In this document: one piece after another, positions 31,236 through 41,562 of the stretch
Position numbering within the stretch: the stretch's first letter is position 1
Layout of the letters: every line of letters begins with the position of its first letter
Assembly (NCBI GenBank): GCA_023379025.1
Contig: JAMCTH010000005.1
Coordinates: forward strand, 20,663-84,662
Direction: 5' to 3'
DNA length: 64,000 bases
DNA from: Patescibacteria group bacterium
Lineage (GTDB): Bacteria; Patescibacteriota; Microgenomatia; UBA10105; UBA927
Notes under the pieces: model-generated
The model's input: the letters and a program-made list of their open reading frames with translations, nothing else
Told to the model about the DNA's origin: nothing
The model's database searches: none
Position numbers and translations under genes: made by a program

Positions 31236-32321
31236 CTACCGGGCAATTGCAATGCCGGTTCCCCGCCGTTCACTCCGCCTGAGGGACCAGAGCATCCCGA
31301 AGGAGACCGCAATGGACAAAATAGAGCTCCCTCCGTAGGATACGAGCGGCAGCGTGATACCGGTAATCGGGATGATGCCCATGTTCATACCGGCGTTGAT
31401 AAAAATCTGCGTCAGAAGCATCATAAAGAGTCCTATGGAGTAGACAAAAGGCGTGAGATGGTCAACAACGCCCCGAAGAAGCGGTGAGATCGTCCGCCAG
31501 AGGAGTACCGCATACCCCAGGAGGAGGAGTATCCCTCCGAAAAAACCGAACTCTTCCACCAGTGAGGCGAAAATGAAATCCGTATGGTATTCGGGCAGAA
31601 ACCGGAGGTGGCTTTGCGTCCCGCGCCCCAACCCCCTGCCAAAGAGCTGCCCGCTTCCGACGGCAATCATCGCCTGAAGCGCGTTGTATCCCGCGCCTTT
31701 GGGATCAAGTCCGGGATCCAGGAACGTGAGGATCCGGGCGCGCTGATACGGGTGGAGAGCCTCCCACCCAACGGGAAGGAGGATGCTTCCGAGTACCGCG
31801 CTTGCGATACATACGCCGATCGGAAATCCGGCCGCAATCATCATGCCCATCCAGGAAGACGCAAACACGAGAGCGCTCCCGAGATCCGGCTGTTTAAAGA
31901 TAAGAATGAACGGAATGGCAAACAGGATGGTGTGCATCGCGGCGTGGGGGAGATTCCGCGGCGGATAGCGGGCAAATAGCCACGAAAAAGCCAGAAGTAT
32001 GAGCGGCTTGGCGAGCTCGGAAGGCTGGAGCTGAATACCTCCGATCATGATCCATCGCGTTGCCCCGCGGATCGTCGGTCCGAGATACGCTGCCAGAAGG
32101 AGGAGAAGCGACAAGACATACCCGTACGGCGCAAACCACAGGAGTATGACGGCATCAACCTGTGCCAGGACGATCATGAGGAAAAATCCCATGACCAGGT
32201 AGAGGGCCTGCTGGGTAAAAAGACCGTGACTCACCGACAGAAGGAGAAATAATCCGAATAACCCGAGGCAGGAGATGGTCAAGAGATCTATCCAGTCGAC
32301 AGCGCGAGCGAGTCTCCCCAT
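31236..32321 (-). CDS. rodA: SEDS-family peptidoglycan glycosyltransferase (RodA-like)
   Basis: Ten-TM FtsW/RodA/SpoVE pattern with the conserved LQPSELAKP, FIFASLVEEFG and PLVSYGGSS motifs; overlaps the ileS 3' end by about 34 nt. Confidence 0.75.
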   Translation of the reverse strand: MGRLARAVDWIDLLTISCLGLFGLFLLLSVSHGLFTQQALYLVMGFFLMIVLAQVDAVILLWFAPYGYVLSLLLLLAAYLGPTIRGATRWIMIGGIQLQPSELAKPLILLAFSWLFARYPPRNLPHAAMHTILFAIPFILIFKQPDLGSALVFASSWMGMMIAAGFPIGVCIASAVLGSILLPVGWEALHPYQRARILTFLDPGLDPKGAGYNALQAMIAVGSGQLFGRGLGRGTQSHLRFLPEYHTDFIFASLVEEFGFFGGILLLLGYAVLLWRTISPLLRGVVDHLTPFVYSIGLFMMLLTQIFINAGMNMGIIPITGITLPLVSYGGSSILSIAVSFGMLWSLRRSERRGTGIAIAR

Positions 32322-35278
32322 ATGATCGTGTCTGCAAGCGTTTCCCGCTTGAGTACTTCAAGATTTTTACTGCCGAGATCCTTATACGTTTCCGGTACCT
32401 CCAGACGAATGCGTTCATCTATTTTACACCCTTTGTCCTTACGCAGTTTCTGTATTTCGCGGACAAGATCCCGGGTTTTCCCGGCCTCAATATCCTGATT
32501 GCCGACATCCGTTTGGCCGCCGGCCGAATAAACTTCTGTCGCTTCATTGTTTGCTCCTTCATACTCCAATATATTCACGTTGGCTTCTGCCGACACGACA
32601 CGGAGTATTTCCGGGTGTACCTGACGCGGCCCCCGATACCCGAGCCGGAGAAACGGCACCCGCACTTTCACGTTGGCTTGTTTGCGGAAAGCCAAAAGTG
32701 CGGATGTCACCTGTCTTCCGTCAGACATGGCGTGTTCAAGCGCTGTATCGACGAGGCCGGTATCTGCCTCCGGCCAATCCGAAAGATGGACCGAGATCTT
32801 CCCGGTAAGGTTCCGGTATATTTCATCGGACACAAACGGCACAAACGGTGCAAGAAGCGCCGTCAGTGTCGTCAACACCTCATACAGGGTCGTATAACAG
32901 GCCGCTTTATCCTCTGCGTCGGATGCAGCCGGTCCCACACGGTCACGGCTCCGGCGGACGTACCACTGTGACAGATCCGTCACGAATGCTTCTACCGCGC
33001 CTGCTGCGGTTGCCGCGTCAAAGCGTTCAAGAGAGGCTGTGACGACAGCTATCAGCCCGTTGAGTTTACTCACTATCCACCGGTCCAGAACATTGGCTGA
33101 TGGCGTTTTCGTCCCCGGATGCCACCCGTCCACCAGCGCATACGTCACGAAAAAATTGTAGACGTTCCAGAGAAGGAGATGAAACTGCCGGCGGGTCTCG
33201 TCCGCATTGCGGTAGCCGAAGAGGATATTCTGATCGGGATTGTGTCTCGCGAACATCCAGCGCATGACGTCAACGCCTATTTTGTCCGCCCCTTCCCCGA
33301 ACTCGATTGCATTCCCCCAGGATTTATGCATGGGCCGGCCGTCCTCCCCGAGCATGCTCGCATAGCCGAGGACCGTCCGGAAGCACGTCCGTTTTTCAAG
33401 CACCGTCGACATGGCAATCATCGAGTAAAACCAGTTCTTGAACTGGCCCGGGAACGACTCGGTGATAAAATCCGCAGGATACCACGATTTCCAGTAGGTT
33501 TTATCGCCGGTATAGCTGAGCGTACCGGTCGCCGGATCGACAAGCGTCGAAAACCCGACGATACCCGCATCAAGCCACACGTTGCCGACATCGGGAAGCC
33601 GTGACACAGGCTTGCCGCACTGCCCGCAGGCAATTTTGACGTCATCGATGTATGGCTTATGGGGCGAGTGGCCGTCAAATGATTTCCAACCGGCTATGGC
33701 TTTTTCCCTGAGTTCCTCGCGGCTCCCGATAACGGTAAACCATCCGCAGGACGCGCACTCGTAGATCGGGAGCGCAAGCCCCCAATAGCGGTTGGGCTTA
33801 CTGATGAGCCAGTCATGCATATTCGTGAGCCAGTCCAGTTCCCGGTCAAGTCCGAATGCCGGTTTCCAGGTGATTTGCTTTGCCGTTTCGATCATCTGCT
33901 GGCGCAGGGTTTTCCCTTTTCCTTTTTGATCACTCCTTTTGGACTTCTCCGGCTGGTCCATACTGATATACCATTCATCCGTCACTTTCCAGACAAGCTC
34001 GGTTTTACATCGCCAGCACGCCGGATACCGATGAAGATAGTTCTCCACCTTATACATCGTCAGGTGATCGGCCGTACTCCGGGATAGCAGATAGTCAAGG
34101 ACGATCTCCGGGTGTTTTTTGGCGTTCTTGCCGGTCAGAAACCCGAGCCCGTCAAGATAGGTCGCTTCATCATCGATAACCGGTATCATGGGAAGCCCGT
34201 ACTTTTTTCCGAGCCGGAAATCCTCGGCTCCGGCGGAAACGGCGGTATGGACGAGTCCCGTGCCTTCTTCCGTGGAGACCGGCAGTATGAGCGGGTCGGT
34301 CATCACGACCTTATGGAACCGATCGGCGTGGGCTTTTGCTACGGCGGCAACAGCAGGAAGAGCATCAAAGGGAGCAGTATAGGTAAGTCCGTCAAGTTCT
34401 TTCCCCTTTACGGTTTTCTGAATTTTCGCGCCGGTTCCGAATACCGCGGGAACCCGCTCCCTGACGATCCAAAACGAATCGCCGTTCTCATCCGTCACAA
34501 GGGCGTAATCAAGCGATGCATCCGCCGCGACGGCTATGTTTGCCGGTATGGTCCAGGGTGTGGTCGTCCAGATCAACAGATACTCCCGGGAACGGCCGGT
34601 GATGGGAAGCGGCAGGTACACCGATTTGTGGCTCACCTCCTTATAGTCCTCCGTCAGCATCTCGTGCTGGGATATCGCCGTCTGACACCTCGGACACCAC
34701 GGCACGGAGTCTTTGCCTTTGTAGATCCAGCCCTTCTCATGACACACCTTCAGGAAGTACCAGATCATGTAGTTGTTTTCGTCCGACATCGTATAGTACG
34801 AGTGGTCCCAGTCGACAATATACCCGAGACGCTTACTTTGCTCCGACTGGATTGAACTGTACTTTTGCACACGCTCCTTGCATAAGTCCACGAATTTCGC
34901 AATTGAGGCTTTCGGGTCCCCGGGTACGAGGTTTTCGATGTCCCGTTTGTTTTTTATCCCCAACTCCTTCTCAACTTCTACTTCCACCCAGAGCCCCTGG
35001 CAGTCAAATCCGTTCTGAAACCGCTCCTTATACCCGCGGAGTGCAAAAAACCGCTGCCAGAGGTCCTTGTAGGTCCTGCCCCATGCATGGTGGACTCCCA
35101 TAGGATTATTGGCGGTGATGGGACCGTCCAGGAACGAAAACCGTTTATCTGACTGGTCATTTCGGTGAAGATATGCCGCCACGATGCCGTCCCTGTACCA
35201 ACGGGCCAGCGTGTCCTTCTCCATTTCCGGAAAGTTTATCTCTGTCCGGACCGGTTTGAACGTATGGGATATGGTCAT
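32288..35278 (-). CDS. ileS: Isoleucyl-tRNA synthetase, type 2 (long form)
   Basis: 996 aa, collinear with long-form IleS (GPITANN..., GFDCQGLWVEVEVEKELG, WCPRCQTAISQHE, editing and anticodon-binding regions). The HIGH and KMSKS signatures are divergent (MGVHHA; PMHKS). Confidence 0.8.
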   Translation of the reverse strand: MTISHTFKPVRTEINFPEMEKDTLARWYRDGIVAAYLHRNDQSDKRFSFLDGPITANNPMGVHHAWGRTYKDLWQRFFALRGYKERFQNGFDCQGLWVEVEVEKELGIKNKRDIENLVPGDPKASIAKFVDLCKERVQKYSSIQSEQSKRLGYIVDWDHSYYTMSDENNYMIWYFLKVCHEKGWIYKGKDSVPWCPRCQTAISQHEMLTEDYKEVSHKSVYLPLPITGRSREYLLIWTTTPWTIPANIAVAADASLDYALVTDENGDSFWIVRERVPAVFGTGAKIQKTVKGKELDGLTYTAPFDALPAVAAVAKAHADRFHKVVMTDPLILPVSTEEGTGLVHTAVSAGAEDFRLGKKYGLPMIPVIDDEATYLDGLGFLTGKNAKKHPEIVLDYLLSRSTADHLTMYKVENYLHRYPACWRCKTELVWKVTDEWYISMDQPEKSKRSDQKGKGKTLRQQMIETAKQITWKPAFGLDRELDWLTNMHDWLISKPNRYWGLALPIYECASCGWFTVIGSREELREKAIAGWKSFDGHSPHKPYIDDVKIACGQCGKPVSRLPDVGNVWLDAGIVGFSTLVDPATGTLSYTGDKTYWKSWYPADFITESFPGQFKNWFYSMIAMSTVLEKRTCFRTVLGYASMLGEDGRPMHKSWGNAIEFGEGADKIGVDVMRWMFARHNPDQNILFGYRNADETRRQFHLLLWNVYNFFVTYALVDGWHPGTKTPSANVLDRWIVSKLNGLIAVVTASLERFDAATAAGAVEAFVTDLSQWYVRRSRDRVGPAASDAEDKAACYTTLYEVLTTLTALLAPFVPFVSDEIYRNLTGKISVHLSDWPEADTGLVDTALEHAMSDGRQVTSALLAFRKQANVKVRVPFLRLGYRGPRQVHPEILRVVSAEANVNILEYEGANNEATEVYSAGGQTDVGNQDIEAGKTRDLVREIQKLRKDKGCKIDERIRLEVPETYKDLGSKNLEVLKRETLADTIIWGDSLALSTG

Positions 35279-35279
35279 A

Positions 35280-35540
35280 AAAAACCCGCTCTCCTTCCAT
35301 TATATAAGGCCGAGCGGCATGCCGGGGTACCACCTTATTTTGGAGCTTCGCGATTTCGAAACTCGTTTTTGCGAACTAACGAATAACGAACTAACGCATG
35401 TGCTCCCTTCATTCCAGCTGTTACGGGCATACCCGGGATGGTCTACTACGGCCGCAAAACCGGTTCTTCATCCGGCGCCGACTCGCGCAGTAGCGCATAG
35501 TCCGTCCCCCATGGATAGTGGAAGCACGCGCCGTTATCTA
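35280..35540 (-). promoter_or_regulatory. T-box-like leader RNA upstream of ileS (probably acting by SD sequestration)
   Basis: The minus-strand leader contains AAAUAAGGUGGUACCCCGGC (T-box consensus AAnnnGGGUGGnACCGCGG, with the UGGU bulge able to pair with tRNA ACCA). A downstream hairpin CCGCUC...GAGCGG encloses the GGAAGGAG SD and ends in UUUUU at the AUG. The leader is about 260 nt. Confidence 0.55.
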
Positions 35541-35545
35541 TTGCC

Positions 35546-35574
35546 AGTATACCAAATAGCCGCCGGGAGAACAA
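35546..35574 (-). promoter_or_regulatory. Sigma70-like promoter for the ileS leader
   Basis: On the minus strand: TTGTTC, 17 nt, TATACT; the predicted transcription start is near 35540. Confidence 0.4.
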
Positions 35575-35579
35575 ATTGT

Positions 35580-35595
35580 GATATAGATCACATCC
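35580..35595. promoter_or_regulatory. CRP/FNR-family-type palindrome TGTGAtatagaTCACA
   Basis: An exact TGTGA-N6-TCACA core with A/T flanks. It lies just upstream of the ileS-leader -35, centred about -43, and 45 bp upstream of the divergent ABC-exporter ATG. Confidence 0.3.
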
Positions 35596-35639
35596 CATTT
35601 GTTGTGCGTACCGGAAAGACCTGAGATAATACGGCTGAT

Positions 35640-37451
35640 ATGAAACCGATTTTTCGTATCATCTCATTTACGCGGCGCTTTGCACTCTGGTATATCGGTA
35701 TGGGGCTTTTCGTCCTTTCGGTATCGGCGCTTTCGCTGGTCGGGCCGTTTCTGTCCAAAAGCATCGTCGACCTCATCGTCGCAAAACTTACGGGGCACCC
35801 GGGAAATATCTCCATGTTTTTGGTTTTTTTGGGTGGCATCATAGCCACGGATATCGCGATTACACTCTTTACCGCTCTCGGCCAATGGGCCGGAGATCTT
35901 TTGACCATCCGGCTTCAGACGTTTCTCTCCAAAGCGTTTTACGAGCACGTCCTTTCCCTCCATATCGGCTATTTCGACAATGAAATTACCGGACAGATCG
36001 TGAACAAAATGTACCGCGGCATTACCTCCATTACGGAGTTTATGCAGAATATGCTTAATAATTTCCTCCCCTTCTTTTTTACGGCCTTTATCACCATTGT
36101 GGTCCTCTCGTTCTATTCGCCGGTCATCAGTATCCTCCTTTTTATCCTCTTCCCGGCATATATCCTCATATCCCACGGATCAAGCAAAGCATGGATGGGC
36201 ATAGAAGACCGGAAAAACACGCTCGTTGACCAGAGCCAGGGACGGGTGTTTGAAAGTTTCGTCGGCATCCGCGTCGTCAAATCCTTTGCGGCAGAACTCG
36301 GAGAACTGGCCTCGTTCCTGAAAACCCGGCGTGAGGTTGAGGATCTCACGAAAACGCAGACACGGCAGTGGCACCTCTATGATTTCGGCAGGAGACTCGT
36401 CCTTAACATCATCCTGTTTGCGATTTTCAGCTATATCGTCTACTGGACCTATCACGGACGGTATACATTGGGAGATATGACGCTCCTTCTCCAGCTCGTC
36501 CAACAGGCGCGGTTCCCTTTGTTTGCCATGTCATTTATCCTTGGCCAGATACAGGAAGCAAGCGCCGGATCTGCCGATTATTTCCGGGTGCTGGAAACCT
36601 CGTCCCGTATTACCGACCGCCCGGGCTCCGGAAAACTGGTCATCCCGTCTCCGGCGCGGATACCGGAGTTTATTTCGTTTGACCGCGTGTCGTTTGCGTA
36701 CGACGCCGTCCGAAACGTCCTCAGCGATATATCCTTTACCGTCCGGCGGGGCGAGCGGTTTGCACTGGTCGGCGAAAGCGGACAGGGAAAATCCACACTC
36801 GTCAATCTCCTGCTTCGCTATTACGAACCGCAAAAAGGCACGATCCGTATTGCCGGACAGGATATCCTGACGGTCAGCCAGGAATCGCTCCATCGCGAGA
36901 TTGCCGTCGTCTTCCAGGAGTCGCTCCTTTTTTCCGGCACGATCATGGACAATATCCGCTATGGAAATCCTGCCGCATCGGATAGCGATGTCAGACGTGC
37001 GGCGCGCGCCGCCAATGCGGACGGCTTCATTACCGAACTTACCGACGGATATAAAAGCCTCATAGGGGAACGCGGGGTGCGGCTCAGCGGCGGGCAGAAA
37101 CAGCGCATCGCCATAGCCCGTGCGATCCTCAAAAACGCGCCGATCATCATTCTCGATGAAGCGACGAGCTCGCTCGACAGTAAGGCGGAACTCGAAGTGC
37201 AGAAGGGTCTTGCGGCACTTCTCAAAGGGCGGACAGCAATGATCATCGCACACAGACTCTCGACCATCGCCAATGCCGACCATATCCTGGTCCTCGAACA
37301 CGGGAAAGTGGCGCAGTACGGGAACCATCGGGAGCTTGTCCGGGACAAAAAGGGTCTCTACGCGCAGCTCGTTTCCCTCCAGCAAACCCTCATGGCCGCC
37401 CCGACGGAAGAACGCCAAAAACAGCTTGCGGCGTTTGATTTGGTGGGATAA
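35640..37451 (+). CDS. ABC exporter, fused permease and ATPase (MsbA/type I exporter-like)
   Basis: Six-TM N-terminal domain; Walker A GESGQGKST, signature LSGGQKQRIAIARA, Walker B IIILDEATSSLD and an H-loop AHRLST. Confidence 0.85.
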   Translation: MKPIFRIISFTRRFALWYIGMGLFVLSVSALSLVGPFLSKSIVDLIVAKLTGHPGNISMFLVFLGGIIATDIAITLFTALGQWAGDLLTIRLQTFLSKAFYEHVLSLHIGYFDNEITGQIVNKMYRGITSITEFMQNMLNNFLPFFFTAFITIVVLSFYSPVISILLFILFPAYILISHGSSKAWMGIEDRKNTLVDQSQGRVFESFVGIRVVKSFAAELGELASFLKTRREVEDLTKTQTRQWHLYDFGRRLVLNIILFAIFSYIVYWTYHGRYTLGDMTLLLQLVQQARFPLFAMSFILGQIQEASAGSADYFRVLETSSRITDRPGSGKLVIPSPARIPEFISFDRVSFAYDAVRNVLSDISFTVRRGERFALVGESGQGKSTLVNLLLRYYEPQKGTIRIAGQDILTVSQESLHREIAVVFQESLLFSGTIMDNIRYGNPAASDSDVRRAARAANADGFITELTDGYKSLIGERGVRLSGGQKQRIAIARAILKNAPIIILDEATSSLDSKAELEVQKGLAALLKGRTAMIIAHRLSTIANADHILVLEHGKVAQYGNHRELVRDKKGLYAQLVSLQQTLMAAPTEERQKQLAAFDLVG

Positions 37452-37489
37452 TGAGGCAACTCTGCTTCAGTAAAAGCGCCCATTCATGA

Positions 37490-37523
37490 TTCAACCCGTC
37501 GGGTTGAATAGGTTTAAACCTAT
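37490..37523. repeat. Copy A of a ~30-bp two-hairpin element (CAACCCGTCGGGTTGAATAGGTTTAAACCT), candidate bidirectional terminator / island boundary
   Basis: AACCCgtcGGGTT hairpin plus the perfect 18-bp palindrome AATAGGTTTAAACCTATT; it is located between the convergent ABC exporter and ORF 37573..38052. Confidence 0.6.
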
Positions 37524-37572
37524 TGGACGCCAACCACTAGCGAGGTACTCAACACTCCTCAATAGCTGCCCT

Positions 37573-38052
37573 CTATGGCAATAAATCCCATGGACTCGGT
37601 TCCTCCGGCGCAAGCCGTATACGGTCCTGATGCTCGGGGGAAAAGACGCCTGGTATCATAACAAAGGGAAGATAGCCGATGGCATTGTCCTCTTGATCAT
37701 CGATAAACAGCCAGACCCCTATGACATACTCGTCTCCGAGCTCCTGAGCCTCACGGGCATGTTGTTTCTCGTGAACAATTCGTTCCGTATATCCCTCCGC
37801 CCCGAGAAAAACCAGAAATCGCTCCAATACGTCGAACGAGCCGAACGTATACATGTCCCGGTCAAAATGGACGCGGTCCTTCCATACTTCGCACAGAGCC
37901 GTAATGCGACCTGTTAGTTCGTCTGAGGTCATGAGCCCTTGCCGTTCTTTGTGCATCAAGTCCCGTTGAAGGACGAGAAAGTCGTACAGATCGCTATATC
38001 GGGTGGTCGGTCTGATAATATGCGTATCGATTTCTTCTTTAGCGTTCGGCAT
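37573..38052 (-). CDS. Hypothetical protein with HExxH motif (possible metallopeptidase-like)
   Basis: 159 aa containing VHEKQHAREAQELGDEY (HExxH followed by acidic residues); no other recognisable domain. Confidence 0.35.
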   Translation of the reverse strand: MPNAKEEIDTHIIRPTTRYSDLYDFLVLQRDLMHKERQGLMTSDELTGRITALCEVWKDRVHFDRDMYTFGSFDVLERFLVFLGAEGYTERIVHEKQHAREAQELGDEYVIGVWLFIDDQEDNAIGYLPFVMIPGVFSPEHQDRIRLAPEEPSPWDLLP

Positions 38053-38227
38053 ATTCTTTTAAAAATCTGTATTCAAATCTTACTATAACATTCATGAGTC
38101 CGGCCGTGCAGTCTTGTATCTTTTCTGTTTTGGCTTATAATACGCTGTCAGTTCAGGACCTAAACATCAGAGCTTGTTTAGGGTGTCTTACCTGCCTGCT
38201 ATAGTCGTTGCGCCTTAACAACTCCGG

Positions 38228-38330
38228 GTGTCAATCTCGGCAGAGCCGACGGGAAGATAGTCTCTCCTGTCTTTCTCTAGGCTCTGCCGAGAGGACGGGA
38301 GAGGGTTGCATTCGGCACCCAATACGACTT
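38228..38330 (+). other. Candidate structured leader/ncRNA upstream of ORF 38346
   Basis: A 12-bp inverted repeat CTCGGCAGAGCC...GGCTCTGCCGAG closes a ~30-nt loop with repeated GACGGGAAGA/GACGGGAGAG; the GGGAGG SD follows immediately. Confidence 0.25.
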
Positions 38331-38345
38331 TATGTGTGAAGGGAG

Positions 38346-38570
38346 GTGAAACCCGTGCAATCGCCATTAAATCCAAACAGGGAAAAAGCAGCGACTCTCA
38401 TCACAAAGGCAGAAGAGATCGCTGACGAGGTGGTCGACCTGGCTAAAGAGGCTGTCGCGTTGGATCTCGACCCATTGACCGAGACCGACATTAGAGACAT
38501 CGCAAGGAAAGTGGGGAAGGCAGCCGACGCCTATCTTGAAGGATTGGGGATTCAGGTCGAAACAAAGTAG
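38346..38570 (+). CDS. Hypothetical small acidic protein (74 aa)
   Basis: GGGAGG SD upstream; GTG/ATG start ambiguous; predicted helical and highly acidic. Confidence 0.35.
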   Translation: MKPVQSPLNPNREKAATLITKAEEIADEVVDLAKEAVALDLDPLTETDIRDIARKVGKAADAYLEGLGIQVETK

Positions 38571-38693
38571 CCAGACGTCAAAAAAATCCGGAGAATCAAC
38601 CCTCTCCAAATTTTTCCGGCGAAAGGAGAAAAGCCTATCGAGAAATTCCAAATTGGTTATCAAATCGGGATCTTATGACAACGGAGGAATAAA

Positions 38694-38912
38694 ATGCACT
38701 TAACTCGCGCTCAACAGATTTTGCGCATACTCGGCTGGGCTGGGGTGGTATTCCTCTTCGGGCTCACACTGATCCTCGGCGTCCATCCGGAGGTAACCAT
38801 TGGTTTCGGACCGCTCACGATTTCCGCGGTCGTACCAATCGGCGCAACAACGGTCGTCGAGGGACTTTGTCTCTACTTTAAAAAGGGACCAGCAACCCGT
38901 CGGGTTACTTAG
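38694..38912 (+). CDS. Hypothetical small membrane protein (72 aa)
   Basis: GGAGGAATAAAATG start context and two hydrophobic helices; its stop lies inside repeat copy B. Confidence 0.4.
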   Translation: MHLTRAQQILRILGWAGVVFLFGLTLILGVHPEVTIGFGPLTISAVVPIGATTVVEGLCLYFKKGPATRRVT

Positions 38913-38922
38913 GTTCAAACCT
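38893..38922. repeat. Copy B of the two-hairpin element (CAACCCGTCGGGTTacttAGGTTCAAACCT)
   Basis: 26/30 identical to copy C; the 4 central nt differ. Confidence 0.55.
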
Positions 38923-38978
38923 CCAATGATCGATCGTTTGCTTCCCGAAAACATGTAAGAATTCCGCACTAATTCCGG

Positions 38979-39446
38979 ATGTGCTACAATCATCTCGATA
39001 TGAGTGAACCTGAACAAAACAGCACAGTTCAAAAACTCTTAAAGGATTTGTGCTCGCTCTTTCCTCTTCCTGCACTTCACATACGTCAGACAGAATATTA
39101 CATGCCGGAAGCTCATGAACTGAGGAACACGCACCCTGATTGGCCGAGTGTATACTTGGGAAATTTCACCAGGGAACAACTTCAACGAATCAGTGATGAT
39201 GAATTTTTTCCGGTGTATCTCCGGAACTGGGCTTCCATGCTGAGCGATTGTTATCTCAACGAAGACGCGGCTGCTCAAGGAATTGGTGAATTAGCGGAGT
39301 TGCGGCAGCGCGAACAAATCTACGGAAAAGAATTACGTTCCAATTGGTCTTTTCCCGTACCAGAACCCGTTAGAACGTATATGATAGAAAACGGTTTGCT
39401 TCCCGTTAATGCAGATATTGTCCCCAAGGAACTACATTTCGAGTAG
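38979..39446 (+). CDS. Hypothetical protein (155 aa)
   Basis: ORF in the AT-rich part of the island; a TGTGCTACAAT extended -10-like sequence overlaps the first ATG, so the start may be the downstream MSEPEQ codon. No motif recognised. Confidence 0.35.
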   Translation: MCYNHLDMSEPEQNSTVQKLLKDLCSLFPLPALHIRQTEYYMPEAHELRNTHPDWPSVYLGNFTREQLQRISDDEFFPVYLRNWASMLSDCYLNEDAAAQGIGELAELRQREQIYGKELRSNWSFPVPEPVRTYMIENGLLPVNADIVPKELHFE

Positions 39447-39564
39447 AGTGCTTCTTCAGCGTTAACTCCCAGTAGCAAAAATGCAGGGATGTCAAATTCG
39501 TCTTCCTTAGGTAGAAGATCATCGTATCTCGGTCATGGCCTTCTCAATTTTATGAATAGGATTG

Positions 39565-40350
39565 CTAATCTAGAACAGCAATCATACGTTCTGCCTGTAC
39601 TAAAAACGCTTCCATTGTGGAGTCGTTTTGAAGAGTGATAGTCGCAAAATTCCGAATTTCTTCCAGAAGCGCATGTTCTTGTTCCTCTCGTGATTGAAAC
39701 GATTCTACATCTCCGGATCGACTGGAATCCAATAGTGCACGTGCCTCTGCACGCCTGCGTCTCATCTCATAGTCTCTCGCACTATCATCAGGATTCAACG
39801 TGACAAAAATTACGTTTCCAACCGCCTCCTTCGGTCGTCTTGGACCGAATAAAACCAACTTAGTGTAACCCGTTTCGGCCGATTTCAAAATCGCAAGCCT
39901 CACTAAAATATCATCACCGAACATTTCCTTGAAACTAATCCCGACGTCTATTTTATCCTGGTTGTTATTACGATCCTTTCCCCACGCAGTTGCAATATCC
40001 CGCGCCATATCGGAAAACGTGATGAGGTGATAGTTGTGGGCTGCAAAAACTGGCCGTAATGCGTCTTTCCAGGAAAGTTGGTGACCGGCTACTGTCACAA
40101 CATTTACCCCATTCATTTGCGGTCCGAGGCGCTGTACCCTATCCACGACTCTCCCGAAGTGATCAGTAAGATACTCAGTTATACAGACGGTGGATAGTGT
40201 GGGTTCAAACCTCGCCACTCGATTACTTAGATCCTGCATAACCCGGATAAAAAGTTCCTCATGCCTGTCTTTAAGGGTTGACGAAGGTTGAAGTGCTAAA
40301 GCAAGACAGAAATAAAAGAAACAACAACCCGTCGGGTTGAATAGGTTCAA
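39565..40350 (-). CDS. Hypothetical protein (up to 261 aa; true start probably downstream of the ORF-track TTG start)
   Basis: Long minus-strand ORF with no recognisable motif (no P-loop, no HTH seen); its 5' end as drawn overlaps repeat copy C. Confidence 0.4.
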   Translation of the reverse strand: MNLFNPTGCCFFYFCLALALQPSSTLKDRHEELFIRVMQDLSNRVARFEPTLSTVCITEYLTDHFGRVVDRVQRLGPQMNGVNVVTVAGHQLSWKDALRPVFAAHNYHLITFSDMARDIATAWGKDRNNNQDKIDVGISFKEMFGDDILVRLAILKSAETGYTKLVLFGPRRPKEAVGNVIFVTLNPDDSARDYEMRRRRAEARALLDSSRSGDVESFQSREEQEHALLEEIRNFATITLQNDSTMEAFLVQAERMIAVLD

Positions 40351-40354
40351 ACCT
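40325..40354. repeat. Copy C of the two-hairpin element (CAACCCGTCGGGTTGAATAGGTTCAAACCT)
   Basis: 29/30 identical to copy A; it sits 8 bp beyond the ftsZ stop codon. Confidence 0.6.
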
Positions 40355-40362
40355 GTTCTCTC

Positions 40363-41562
40363 CTAACTCCTCTGCCGCAGGAATGCGGGGATGTCGAATT
40401 CGTCTTCCTCGGGCGGAAGATCATCGGAAGCAGACGGGAACGTTGAAGACTGCGCCGGCTGCACCGGAGTTTGCCGTGGCTGAAAATTCTGCGGCTGTTG
40501 CGGCTGCTGAGCCGGTTTCTGATAGACGGAAGTGTTCCCGCCCATGGCGCCGCCCGTCATCGCCCCGCCCATAGCCGGACGCCCCGATAATTCCCGGAGG
40601 CGCTTTTTGGTTTCGTCAAAGCCTGTGGCTATCACCGTGATTTTCACCTGGTCGACCAGGTGGTCGTCGATGGTTGCGCCGAAGATGATATTGGCATCGG
40701 GGTCGACAGCCGCGGCTATCTGCTTAGCCGCCTCATCCACTTCGCTCATGGTCAGGTCCGGACCGCCGGTGATGTTAAACAATACGCCTTTGGCCCCTTC
40801 TATGGAAAGCTCAAGAAGCGGCGATGCGATAGCGGTGCGTGCCGCGGTTGCCGCCCGGTTTTCCCCGACGCCGGTACCGATACCCATAAGGGATGATCCT
40901 GCCTTGGTCATGATAGTCCGGACATCGGCAAAGTCAACGTTTATAAGTCCCGGCATGGTGATAAGATCCGCTATCCCCTGCACCCCCTGACCGAGCACCG
41001 AGTCAGTCACCCTGAAGGCCTCAAGGAGGGTCATTTTTTTATCGATGACGTCAAGGAGCCGTTGGTTGGGGATAACGATGAGGGTATCTACTTTATCCTT
41101 CAGGTTCATGATCCCCTCTTCGGCGGTCACCATCCGCCGCGTTCCTTCGAAATGAAACGGCTTCGTGACGACGCCGACGGTGAGGGATCCGAGCTCGCTC
41201 GCGATCTCCGCAATGACGGGTGTTGCCCCGGTACCGGTTCCTCCGCCTTCCCCGCAGGTCAGGAACACCATATCGGTATCGCGGAGATATTCCTTGATTT
41301 TCTCCCGTGATTCTTCTGCGGCCTGTTGGCCGATGTCCGGATTGCCTCCGGCGCCCAATCCCCGCGTCAGATTTTCCCCGATCTGGATCTTCGTCGTCGC
41401 CTGACAGGTCAGAAGCGCCTGGGCATCGGTGTTGAGCCCGATGAAATCCACTCCCGCAATCTGATTGACACCGATCATGGAGTTGAGGGCGTTGGAACCC
41501 CCTCCGCCGATGCCGATAACTTTAATTTTGGCAAAATGCGCAATATCGGGTTTTATAAGCAT
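40363..41562 (-). CDS. ftsZ: Cell division GTPase FtsZ
   Basis: [14 protein letters not shown], the tubulin signature GGGTGTGA, a T7 loop and a C-terminal Q/P-rich tail ending [10 protein letters not shown]. Confidence 0.95.

Follow-up and report, generated by a model that had tools for sequence, protein, structure and literature searches.

Three copies of a 30-nucleotide (nt) hairpin-forming element lie between an ABC exporter gene and ftsZ in a 64-kb stretch of contig JAMCTH010000005.1 (the window, by which we mean the whole stretch of DNA that was analysed). We interpret these repeats as singlet (half) copies of a mobile palindrome of the repetitive extragenic palindromic (REP)/REPIN (REP doublets forming hairpins) type, situated in gene-turnover DNA that would have been built in at least two steps, and put the probability of this reading at about 0.6. 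It is founded on the occurrence of the same hairpin and one transposase lineage as matched pairs in other bacteria of the candidate phyla radiation (CPR), since such pairs are the signature of systems that combine REPs or REPINs with a REP-associated tyrosine transposase (RAYT) (PMC3116915, PMC5581495). An earlier reading of the same DNA, made from its letters alone (the original prediction), had considered the repeats as boundaries of an inserted cassette of five genes.

Three copies of one element in the window

A search with the 30-nt pattern CAACCCGTCGGGTTGAATAGGTTYAAACCT returned exactly three sites in the 64 kb, all on the plus strand, where the expectation by chance is zero. Copies A (37492-37521) and C (40325-40354) match without a mismatch and copy B (38893-38922) with three, the distance from start to start being 1401 nt for A-B and 1432 nt for B-C. 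When the window was scanned with a covariance model, R1, built from copies in other genomes only, A, B and C were again the only sites recovered (E 8e-18, 5e-8 and 3e-13, respectively), in agreement with the positions first proposed.

Copy A comprises the hairpin CAACCCGTCGGGTTG and an arm bearing AATAGGTTTAAACCTATT, which is indeed the perfect 18-nt palindrome reported before (37507-37524). It lies between the convergent genes for the ABC exporter and p159, starting 38 nt past the exporter stop codon. Copy B encodes the last six codons and the stop codon of p72, and copy C matches a copy in contig Ga0209102_1031593 (GC 0.285) at 30 of 30 nt. Each of the three is found at the 3' end of a gene and forms two small hairpins (z-scores -2.6 for A, -2.5 for C and -1.4 for B). 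On the minus strand B and C read as a hairpin followed by a T-rich tail and resemble a terminator, which in the case of C stands directly behind ftsZ.

An arm-only fragment of the element, TGGGTTCAAACCT, was seen with one mismatch at 40200-40212 on the plus strand (R1 E 0.19), in the 5' part of the p224 open reading frame (ORF); it is probably a chance match.

The search was extended by 16 kb beyond the window ends, and '80 kb' below denotes the window plus these 16 kb. Further copies of the 30-nt element, which the original prediction had suggested looking for, are absent from the ~80 kb searched: neither a fuzzy pattern scan nor R1 detected one beyond the window ends. By tblastn no RAYT homologue was found there, and none is present inside the window. 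R1 returned zero copies from ~0.9 Mb of other CPR loci, four Gottesmanbacteria included, Rfam has no family for the repeats, and no REP element was found in viral contigs.

We also compared the repeats with other kinds of site. A phage cos or att origin is unsupported, the element not being found in viral contigs. An integron attC site was rejected even though ATTCAAC...GTTGAAT fits RYYYAAC/GTTRRRY, as the boxes are only 7 nt apart and there is no integrase, and dif/Xer sites and parS were both rejected for their dissimilar architecture.

The element flanks a transposase gene in other genomes

Scanning metagenome contigs for AACCCGTCGGGTTNNNTAGGTTYAAACC identified five stretches: three on the 149-kb contig Ga0209102_1000010, one on a 1-kb contig of the same sample and one on JADDYB010040199. 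The contigs concerned have a GC content of 29-38%, and the element is their only similarity to the window, the flanks being different. Across the other contigs that carry the exact element, GC ranges from 29 to 42%.

The full form found elsewhere is a ~56-nt palindrome, CCGAAAGGTTCAAACCTATTC-AACCCGTCGGGTT-GAATAGGTTCAAACCTTTCGG. Full palindromes fold as one long hairpin (-38.6 and -32.5 kcal/mol, z -9 and -6). The other copies are half elements, consisting of the central hairpin and one arm, in the same strand-specific form as the window copies. Among the loci that we retrieved (numbered with the prefix L), doublets occur in L082, L083, L086, L087, L098 and L099, and singlets of the same half in L083, L084, L085 and L087 as well as at all window sites. 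Copies elsewhere lie at the 3' ends of genes, for the most part where two genes converge; they are solitary and do not form pairs around cargo. The 149-kb contig, which bears a RAYT gene, has at least five element sites, all of them extragenic.

In L083 an ORF of 222 amino acids (aa) lies 16 nt from a half copy, and the opposite flank of the gene runs into a full palindrome. Its product matches the Pfam family Y1_Tnp (PF01797, IS200-like) with 26.4 bits, above the gathering score of 23, and its only NCBIfam match is to the REP-associated tyrosine transposase NF047646 (E 1.2e-13). The protein has the HUH motif MPNHFHLL and the motif SRYIHLN with the catalytic tyrosine, both invariant across 27 homologues. 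More than 1200 proteins, each ~222 aa long, make up the family; its named members come from Woesebacteria, Daviesbacteria and other Patescibacteria, and one has been named RayT by JGI. As judged from these matches, the transposase is a predicted Y1/HUH enzyme that is RAYT-like by context and falls under the curated RAYT cut-off.

Orthologues with 67-71% identity were found in four further contig sets (L087/88, L098, L099/100 and L101). Each set has the same element on both flanks of the gene, and three of the four had not been used in building R1. The element therefore flanks the transposase in five genomes in all (L083, L087/88, L098, L099/100 and L101). None of the samples that yielded the closest orthologues is SRR10278331, the run whose Logan contig carries the window sequence.

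The orthologous gene adjoins a prepilin peptidase gene in L087, L088, L098 and L099, and L083 has a matching type IV pilus cluster. Because the orthologues stay beside the prepilin peptidase gene, the arrangement suggests one inherited transposase locus rather than a multi-copy insertion sequence. Distant homologues (48-52% identity; Woesebacteria and Daviesbacteria) have another hairpin on their flanks, TTCACCC..GGGTG, and Microgenomates-type CPR bacteria seem to harbour several REP-RAYT pairs.

Two further observations concern these loci. Although its product has diverged to 67-71% identity, the RAYT-like gene retains its place in a type IV pilus cluster, divergent from the prepilin peptidase gene (L087:3619-4287, L088:4106-4774, L098:1694-2359, L099:1529-2197 and L083:10617-11285), and around it the flanking REP is almost unchanged while the other intergenic DNA has diverged. 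Sites of TTCACCC..GGGTG were located at L089:10684 and at L091:6126, 6151, 9941 and 10712, some of the L091 copies being away from the gene.

Probable REP/REPIN character of the repeats

The present system shares several traits with the REP/REPIN-RAYT systems of Pseudomonas and Enterobacteria (PMC3116915, PMC5581495). Its element is a short imperfect palindrome that forms a stem-loop at gene 3' ends; inverted doublets, which form a long hairpin, occur together with singlet remnants; in other genomes the element flanks a Y1/HUH transposase gene that appears to keep one locus; and each transposase lineage has its own cognate hairpin. The HUH motif, the catalytic tyrosine and a PF01797 match above the gathering score coincide in one protein. 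Work on REP/REPIN-RAYT systems reportedly includes that of Nunvar in 2010 and of Bertels and Rainey in 2011.

There are also differences. The element occurs in CPR/Patescibacteria, and the literature that was searched contained no paper describing REP-RAYT systems in CPR bacteria. The CPR transposase, of ~222 aa, is under the NCBIfam RAYT cut-off, one sequence is common to genomes of very different GC, and the window copies are few, clustered and without a transposase. The known REP tag is a conserved GTAG (or CGTC) tetranucleotide at one end, which is cleaved by the transposase (PMC3733652). In the element of the window and of the foreign contigs ATAG or TTAG abuts the second hairpin (WTAG instead of GTAG, no exact GTAG being present), and CGTC is found in the loop of the first, central hairpin.

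A number of results weigh against the REP assignment. The NF047646 score of the transposase is 51.2 bits, below the equivalog cut-off of 80, and a profile of the enzyme matches solved TnpA structures only weakly, from E 0.03 for ISDra2 TnpA to 0.74 for the Escherichia coli TnpA-REP (4er8). A REP family is expected to be dispersed and over-represented; the many dispersed copies are missing here, there being three in ~80 kb, all within 2.9 kb, and three random sites would fall inside 2865 nt of 64 kb with P ~0.006. The lack of a cognate transposase in the same 80 kb counts in the same direction. REPIN-RAYT systems have been described as vertically inherited (PMC5581495). The closest Gottesmanbacteria loci are without the element and its carriers have a very different GC content, which makes it necessary to assume that the element arrived horizontally. 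As neither strand of copy A has a T-tract, a terminator role is not general, and terminator-like sites in the region are no more numerous than in shuffled sequence. Finally, B and C share derived features: both have lost the TTC before AACCCG that every other copy keeps, and they are 83% identical over 41 nt. Together with their bracketing of a low-GC block of foreign codon usage (GC 0.448), this suits an explanation by mobile cassettes, considered below.

If the repeats are REP singlets, the element would presumably have been spread by the single-locus Y1/HUH (RAYT-like) transposase in other CPR genomes. There is no transposase within 80 kb, so the window copies would be stranded, having either been imported with foreign DNA or been deposited by a transposase elsewhere in the genome. 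Their present effect would most likely be that of RNA or DNA hairpins at gene 3' ends, with C possibly terminating ftsZ transcripts, B terminating transcription on the minus strand besides forming the end of p72, and A being a hairpin between convergent genes.

The repeats as possible cassette ends or resident terminators

One alternative explanation is that the REP copies are working cassette ends. As direct singlets ~1.4 kb apart they could act like the subterminal hairpins of IS200/IS605 elements, so that A-B and B-C would be transposase-less units moved in trans by a RAYT-type Y1 transposase; or the B-C block could have entered by REP-REP recombination, between the REP of an incoming circle and the REP behind ftsZ. 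The common orientation of all copies and their near-equal spacing fit such units, as does their clustering in one variable site, no other copy being found in the 80 kb. The derived features common to B and C and the foreign block that they bracket would likewise be accounted for. The Y1 transposases of IS608 and ISDra2 do use subterminal hairpins of one strand (PMC6006769). The single-strand 'peel and paste' system of IS200/IS605 is thus comparable to the present one in its Y1 HUH enzyme class and one-strand subterminal hairpins, in having direct hairpins at both unit ends and in the weak profile match to ISDra2 TnpA. It is unlike it in that neither a transposase nor TnpB lies between the window copies, and in that the CPR enzyme gene appears to be single-locus and syntenic, not multi-copy.

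For the proposed cargo no second instance exists: it consists of orphan genes without a second copy, p155 and p224 giving self matches only among 5.8 billion proteins, and relatives of p159 are found in unrelated, REP-free contexts. Where contigs bear a RAYT gene, each element stands alone at a gene end instead of forming a pair around cargo, and no transposase is encoded within 80 kb. A scar formed by a second ftsZ tail, described below, falls in the middle of the B-C block, which points to a breakpoint away from a REP, and the upstream likeness of B and C is a T-rich tail that may be a convergent terminator feature. We regard working cassette ends as unlikely.

A different explanation is that the repeats are native terminators or RNA-stabilising hairpins, with no mobile element involved, and that the five genes are fast-evolving residents. 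The position of all three copies at gene 3' ends, the hairpin and T-tract with which B and C score on the minus strand, and the location of C right behind ftsZ agree with this view, and A and C fold better than shuffled sequence. CPR genomes are also rich in orphan genes. What such hairpins leave unexplained is the 30/30 identity to elements in genomes of 29-42% GC and the two-sided flanking of a Y1 transposase gene in five genomes. Copy A is without a T-tract, no other gene end in 80 kb uses the sequence, and the element is not in the four Gottesmanbacteria relatives. Rho-independent terminators thus resemble the repeats in the hairpin and T-rich tail of B and C on the minus strand, and differ from them in that the sequence of the repeat is kept in unrelated genomes, where it accompanies a transposase gene. 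The idea of reused bidirectional terminators, also raised in the original prediction, retains its merit as regards the gene 3' ends and the terminator-like form of B and C, but fails on the identity to the low-GC genomes. We consider it quite improbable that the repeats are resident hairpins of this kind.

The original prediction had also offered att-like boundaries. Copies of the REP type occur in unrelated contexts elsewhere and flank a RAYT-like transposase, and neither the stretch nor its neighbourhood encodes an integrase or recombinase. Since they are found in other genomes, the REP copies do not derive from the target site; they are not att sites, and on the preferred reading they are not recombination boundaries either.

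The repeats lie in a variable gap between ftsZ and ileS

The window FtsZ is 76-81% identical to those of four Candidatus Gottesmanbacteria metagenome-assembled genomes, which places the host among the Candidatus Gottesmanbacteria of the CPR. We compared the surroundings of ftsZ in 81 FtsZ-bearing loci, namely that of the present genome and 80 from related bacteria. In 15 of the 81, ftsZ is followed by ileS on the same strand. The gap between the two genes is 50, 58, 149, 327, 418, 426, 841, 852, 1270 and 1495 nt in ten of these loci and 3.5-5.1 kb in the other five, which include the present genome and its closest relative. When the five proteins and the ABC exporter were compared by tblastn with the relatives' 80 loci, no match was obtained, and the ABC exporter is not present in the ftsZ-ileS gap of any relative. 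The synteny comparison proposed at the outset thus finds gaps without the five genes, in which ileS can follow ftsZ as closely as 50-58 nt.

Since ileS is downstream of ftsZ in the relatives and the gap genes have no matches there, the conserved frame is ftsA-ftsZ-ileS, and the whole of 35521-40362 (4.8 kb), ABC exporter included, is lineage-specific filler. The five genes had been described as dropped between two convergent conserved genes; the conserved flanks are instead the co-directional ftsZ and ileS, and the exporter belongs to the filler (Table 1).

The closest relative, L002 (FtsZ identity only 81%), has a gap of 3.9 kb (L002:9171-13102) filled by unrelated ORFs of 147, 168, 100, 130, 303 and 83 aa; it was found to be free of REP copies, ftsZ fragments and notable repeats. 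Ten of the loci have ileS at 50-1500 nt from ftsZ.

GC is 0.42-0.47 across 38850-40350 and also low in the 37950-38250 intergenic region, the window average being 0.537. An AT-rich segment had been placed at 38050-39600; a low-GC stretch exists, but it really runs over these two intervals. No tRNA genes occur near the five genes, which excludes a tRNA-linked island, and integrases or recombinases were found neither among the five proteins (Pfam, PHROGs and NCBIfam) nor among the genes called within 10 kb on either side.

Table 1. Features of the ftsZ-ileS gap and its flanks (window coordinates)
Feature	Position	Strand	Remarks
ileS	32288..35520	-	Second conserved flank of the variable gap
T-box-like leader of ileS, weak	35303-35520	-	30.2 bits, E 9e-4; gathering score 93
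ABC exporter, fused permease and ATPase	35640..37451	+	NCBIfam MsbA-like families at sub-threshold scores; native codon usage
REP copy A, half element (singlet)	37490..37532	+	R1 full length 56.8 bits, E 7.9e-18
p159	37573..38052	-	Acidic, 159 aa; HEKQH at residues 94-98
Nearly perfect long hairpin	38235..38292	+	Inverted repeat with 26-nt arms; p74 5' untranslated region
p74	38346-38570	+	Acidic, 74 aa, pI 4.6; singleton cluster MCL4360104; no family
p72	38694-38912	+	Basic, 72 aa, pI 10.3; two hydrophobic segments; singleton cluster MCL4360105
REP copy B, most diverged	38893..38922	+	R1 29.2 bits, E 4.8e-8
p155, orphan	38979..39446	+	155 aa (148 aa in NCBI call); foreign codon usage
Decayed copy of last 20 ftsZ codons and stop	39463-39524	-	1-nt deletion, no start codon
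p224, orphan	39565..40239	-	224 aa; foreign codon usage
REP copy C	40325..40354	+	R1 43.9 bits, E 3e-13; 8 nt beyond ftsZ stop
ftsZ	40363..41562	-	Conserved flank; Pfam Tubulin and FtsZ_C on the called gene

A decayed duplicate of the ftsZ tail

A feature that had not been noticed before is a second, decayed ftsZ tail. Positions 39524..39463 align with 40426..40364, the true tail, with 50 of 62 nt identical and one single-base gap, and the homology stops at the stop codon. The alignment score is 64, compared with 20.4 +/- 2.5 in shuffles, and a repeat search likewise lists a 50-nt direct repeat (D2, 39475-39524 and 40377-40426, 84% identity). The decayed tail is 902 nt downstream of the true one, with REP copy C and p224 in between. 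Its best match is the resident ftsZ (52/65), ahead of that of any relative. An origin from a foreign ftsZ was rejected, the resident gene being closest, and the fragment would therefore be a decaying piece of the genome's own gene or of that of a very close relative. A role as a decoy of the FtsZ C-terminal peptide was also rejected: the frame is broken by the 1-nt deletion, and between an in-frame upstream stop and the motif there are only three sense codons, none of them ATG, GTG or TTG.

We interpret the duplicate, from its alignment, as the scar of an insertion or replacement event. Either an insertion brought a replacement ftsZ tail with it, as integrative elements do, or DNA from a close relative replaced ftsZ and what lies downstream of it, one end of the exchange being illegitimate and falling within the old tail. 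In both cases the event would have ended in the final 62 nt of the gene, an intact tail having been brought in or retained and the old one left to decay. The filler may have been built in at least two steps, an older block of nearly native composition (p159, p74 and p72) and a younger one of lower GC and foreign codon usage (p155 and p224).

The insert is bracketed by direct repeats, namely the final 62 nt of ftsZ and their diverged copy. This is reminiscent of islands that integrate at the 3' end of conserved tRNA, tmRNA or protein genes and bring a replacement for it, and the homology here ends at the stop codon, so ftsZ stays intact. The comparison is limited by the size of the insert, only 902 nt with one orphan gene and no integrase, and by the divergence of the tail copies, which are only 81% identical and share no identical stretch of more than 13 nt. 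The same arrangement would result from homology-facilitated illegitimate recombination.

In a Levyibacteriota locus we observed a second, inverted ftsZ C-terminal fragment with its stop codon (L007:10857-10889, minus strand), 1.7 kb downstream of the end of ftsZ at L007:9176. Almost all of its codons differ from those of the resident tail by synonymous changes. With such fragments in 2 of 81 loci, rearrangements in the group may repeatedly end at the ftsZ tail.

A bolder version of the cassette explanation is that the CPR RAYT-type Y1 transposase moves, besides bare REPINs, IS200/IS605-like cassettes of ~1.4 kb that carry orphan genes between direct REP singlets, and so seeds variable sites like the ftsZ-ileS gap, a proposal that we rate as a long shot. 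A-B and B-C would then be two cassettes and the ftsZ tail a recurrent landing or recombination point, as the L007 fragment would fit; this part is equally speculative.

Five small genes without a recognisable family

The five genes between copies A and C are annotated at NCBI as hypothetical proteins (M1555_02515 to M1555_02535), and for each the annotated frame scores best. As originally stated, they have no recognisable family: none of the proteins has a significant match in Pfam, PADLOC, PHROGs or NCBIfam, and sequence searches of the PDB with p261 (p224 from its 261-aa start), p159, p155 and a p159 profile gave no matches. GC at third codon positions is 0.43 in p155 and p224, 0.56-0.58 in p159, p74 and p72, and 0.65-0.67 in ftsZ and the ABC exporter.

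p159 is the only one of the five with an informative family. Residues H94, E95 and H98 of its HExxH motif are invariant in 16 members, and the motif lies within helix 86-104 of a structure model with a predicted local distance difference test (pLDDT) score of 92. No similarity in fold or sequence to a known metallopeptidase family was found, and the confident model matches no known fold; we regard p159 as a putative small metal-binding protein or metallopeptidase. A homologue with 37% identity that keeps HExxH is encoded in an archaeal contig (L096:5001-5489 and L097:5001-5489), and the family is probably common to CPR bacteria and small archaea. Its relatives lie in unrelated contexts without REPs nearby, as far as three homologue contexts tell, two of them on contigs too short to inform. 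The archaeal contig, which has S17e, aIF2-gamma and Cdc6/Orc1, has the p159 homologue immediately after a radical SAM gene. In the window, an ORF of 95 aa that runs antisense to p159 (37630-37917, plus strand) has a codon-usage score of 0.259, against 0.153 for the p159 frame over the same stretch. We take p159 to be the real gene rather than the antisense ORF because of its conserved family and confident structure model.

Upstream of p74, in the divergent p159/p74 intergenic region, the original prediction had marked 38228-38330 as a structured leader. A strong and unique hairpin is indeed present, with its limits at 38235-38292; the fold of 38225-38345 has an energy of -54.2 kcal/mol (z -4.2). 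No second copy was found in the window, the fetched loci or viral contigs, and no credible Rfam family was obtained. p74 itself has a sub-threshold match to PF14013, MT0933_antitox (E 0.025; 15.2 bits, cut-off 27), and p72 is predicted to be a small two-segment membrane protein.

p155 and p224 had only themselves as matches in the 5.8 billion proteins and no relative in viral contigs. p224 can also be read as 261 aa from a TTG at 40350 or as 183 aa from 40116 (the NCBI call). It aligns with NCBIfam PRK08356 at E 1.4e-5 with 24.9 bits (cut-off 189) and has VAGHQLSWKD at the Walker A position. A single-sequence AlphaFold2 model had a pLDDT of 40 and was unusable; because this model failed, a degenerate P-loop kinase-like fold is only a guess.

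The five genes might have been acquired as one module, for defence, toxin-antitoxin or bacteriocin and immunity with the ABC exporter, in an integrative island, and a small defence or addiction module had been suggested for them originally. The small acidic proteins, the small membrane protein, the HExxH protein and the adjoining exporter have the look of such a module, and the site is variable with an insertion scar. PADLOC, however, gave zero families at E<=1 for all five, and nothing significant came from Pfam, PHROGs or NCBIfam, which leaves the sub-threshold antitoxin match of p74 as the only hint. The gene compositions differ, suggesting at least two ages; the genes are on both strands and are split by REPs and terminator-like sites; p159 homologues stand alone in unrelated contexts, that of the archaeal contig included; and there is no integrase, nor did the NCBIfam scan give a peptidase-domain match for the exporter. 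A single acquired module is very improbable, and the five are best described as unrelated small genes and not as one system.

Discussion

The stretch between the ABC exporter and ftsZ was singled out as an inserted cassette. That it is lineage-specific DNA at a variable site, part of it with foreign codon usage and with a scar at the ftsZ tail, has held up; the boundaries chosen for it were wrong. The stretch is a variable region of an ordinary type that has kept one useful scar of insertion. The results do not overturn current understanding; their value lies in the correct classification of the repeats and in testable leads.

For annotation, our findings advise caution against taking such repeats for att sites or island boundaries. 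The ftsZ-ileS junction emerges as a site of gene turnover in reduced genomes, with a scar that can be dated, and p159 introduces a small HExxH family, present in CPR bacteria and in an archaeal contig, whose confidently predicted fold has no known match.

The data also show a REP-RAYT pair in candidate-phyla (Microgenomates-type) bacteria. REP copies that are found without a nearby transposase, in a genome of very different composition, bear on the view that REP inheritance is strictly vertical.

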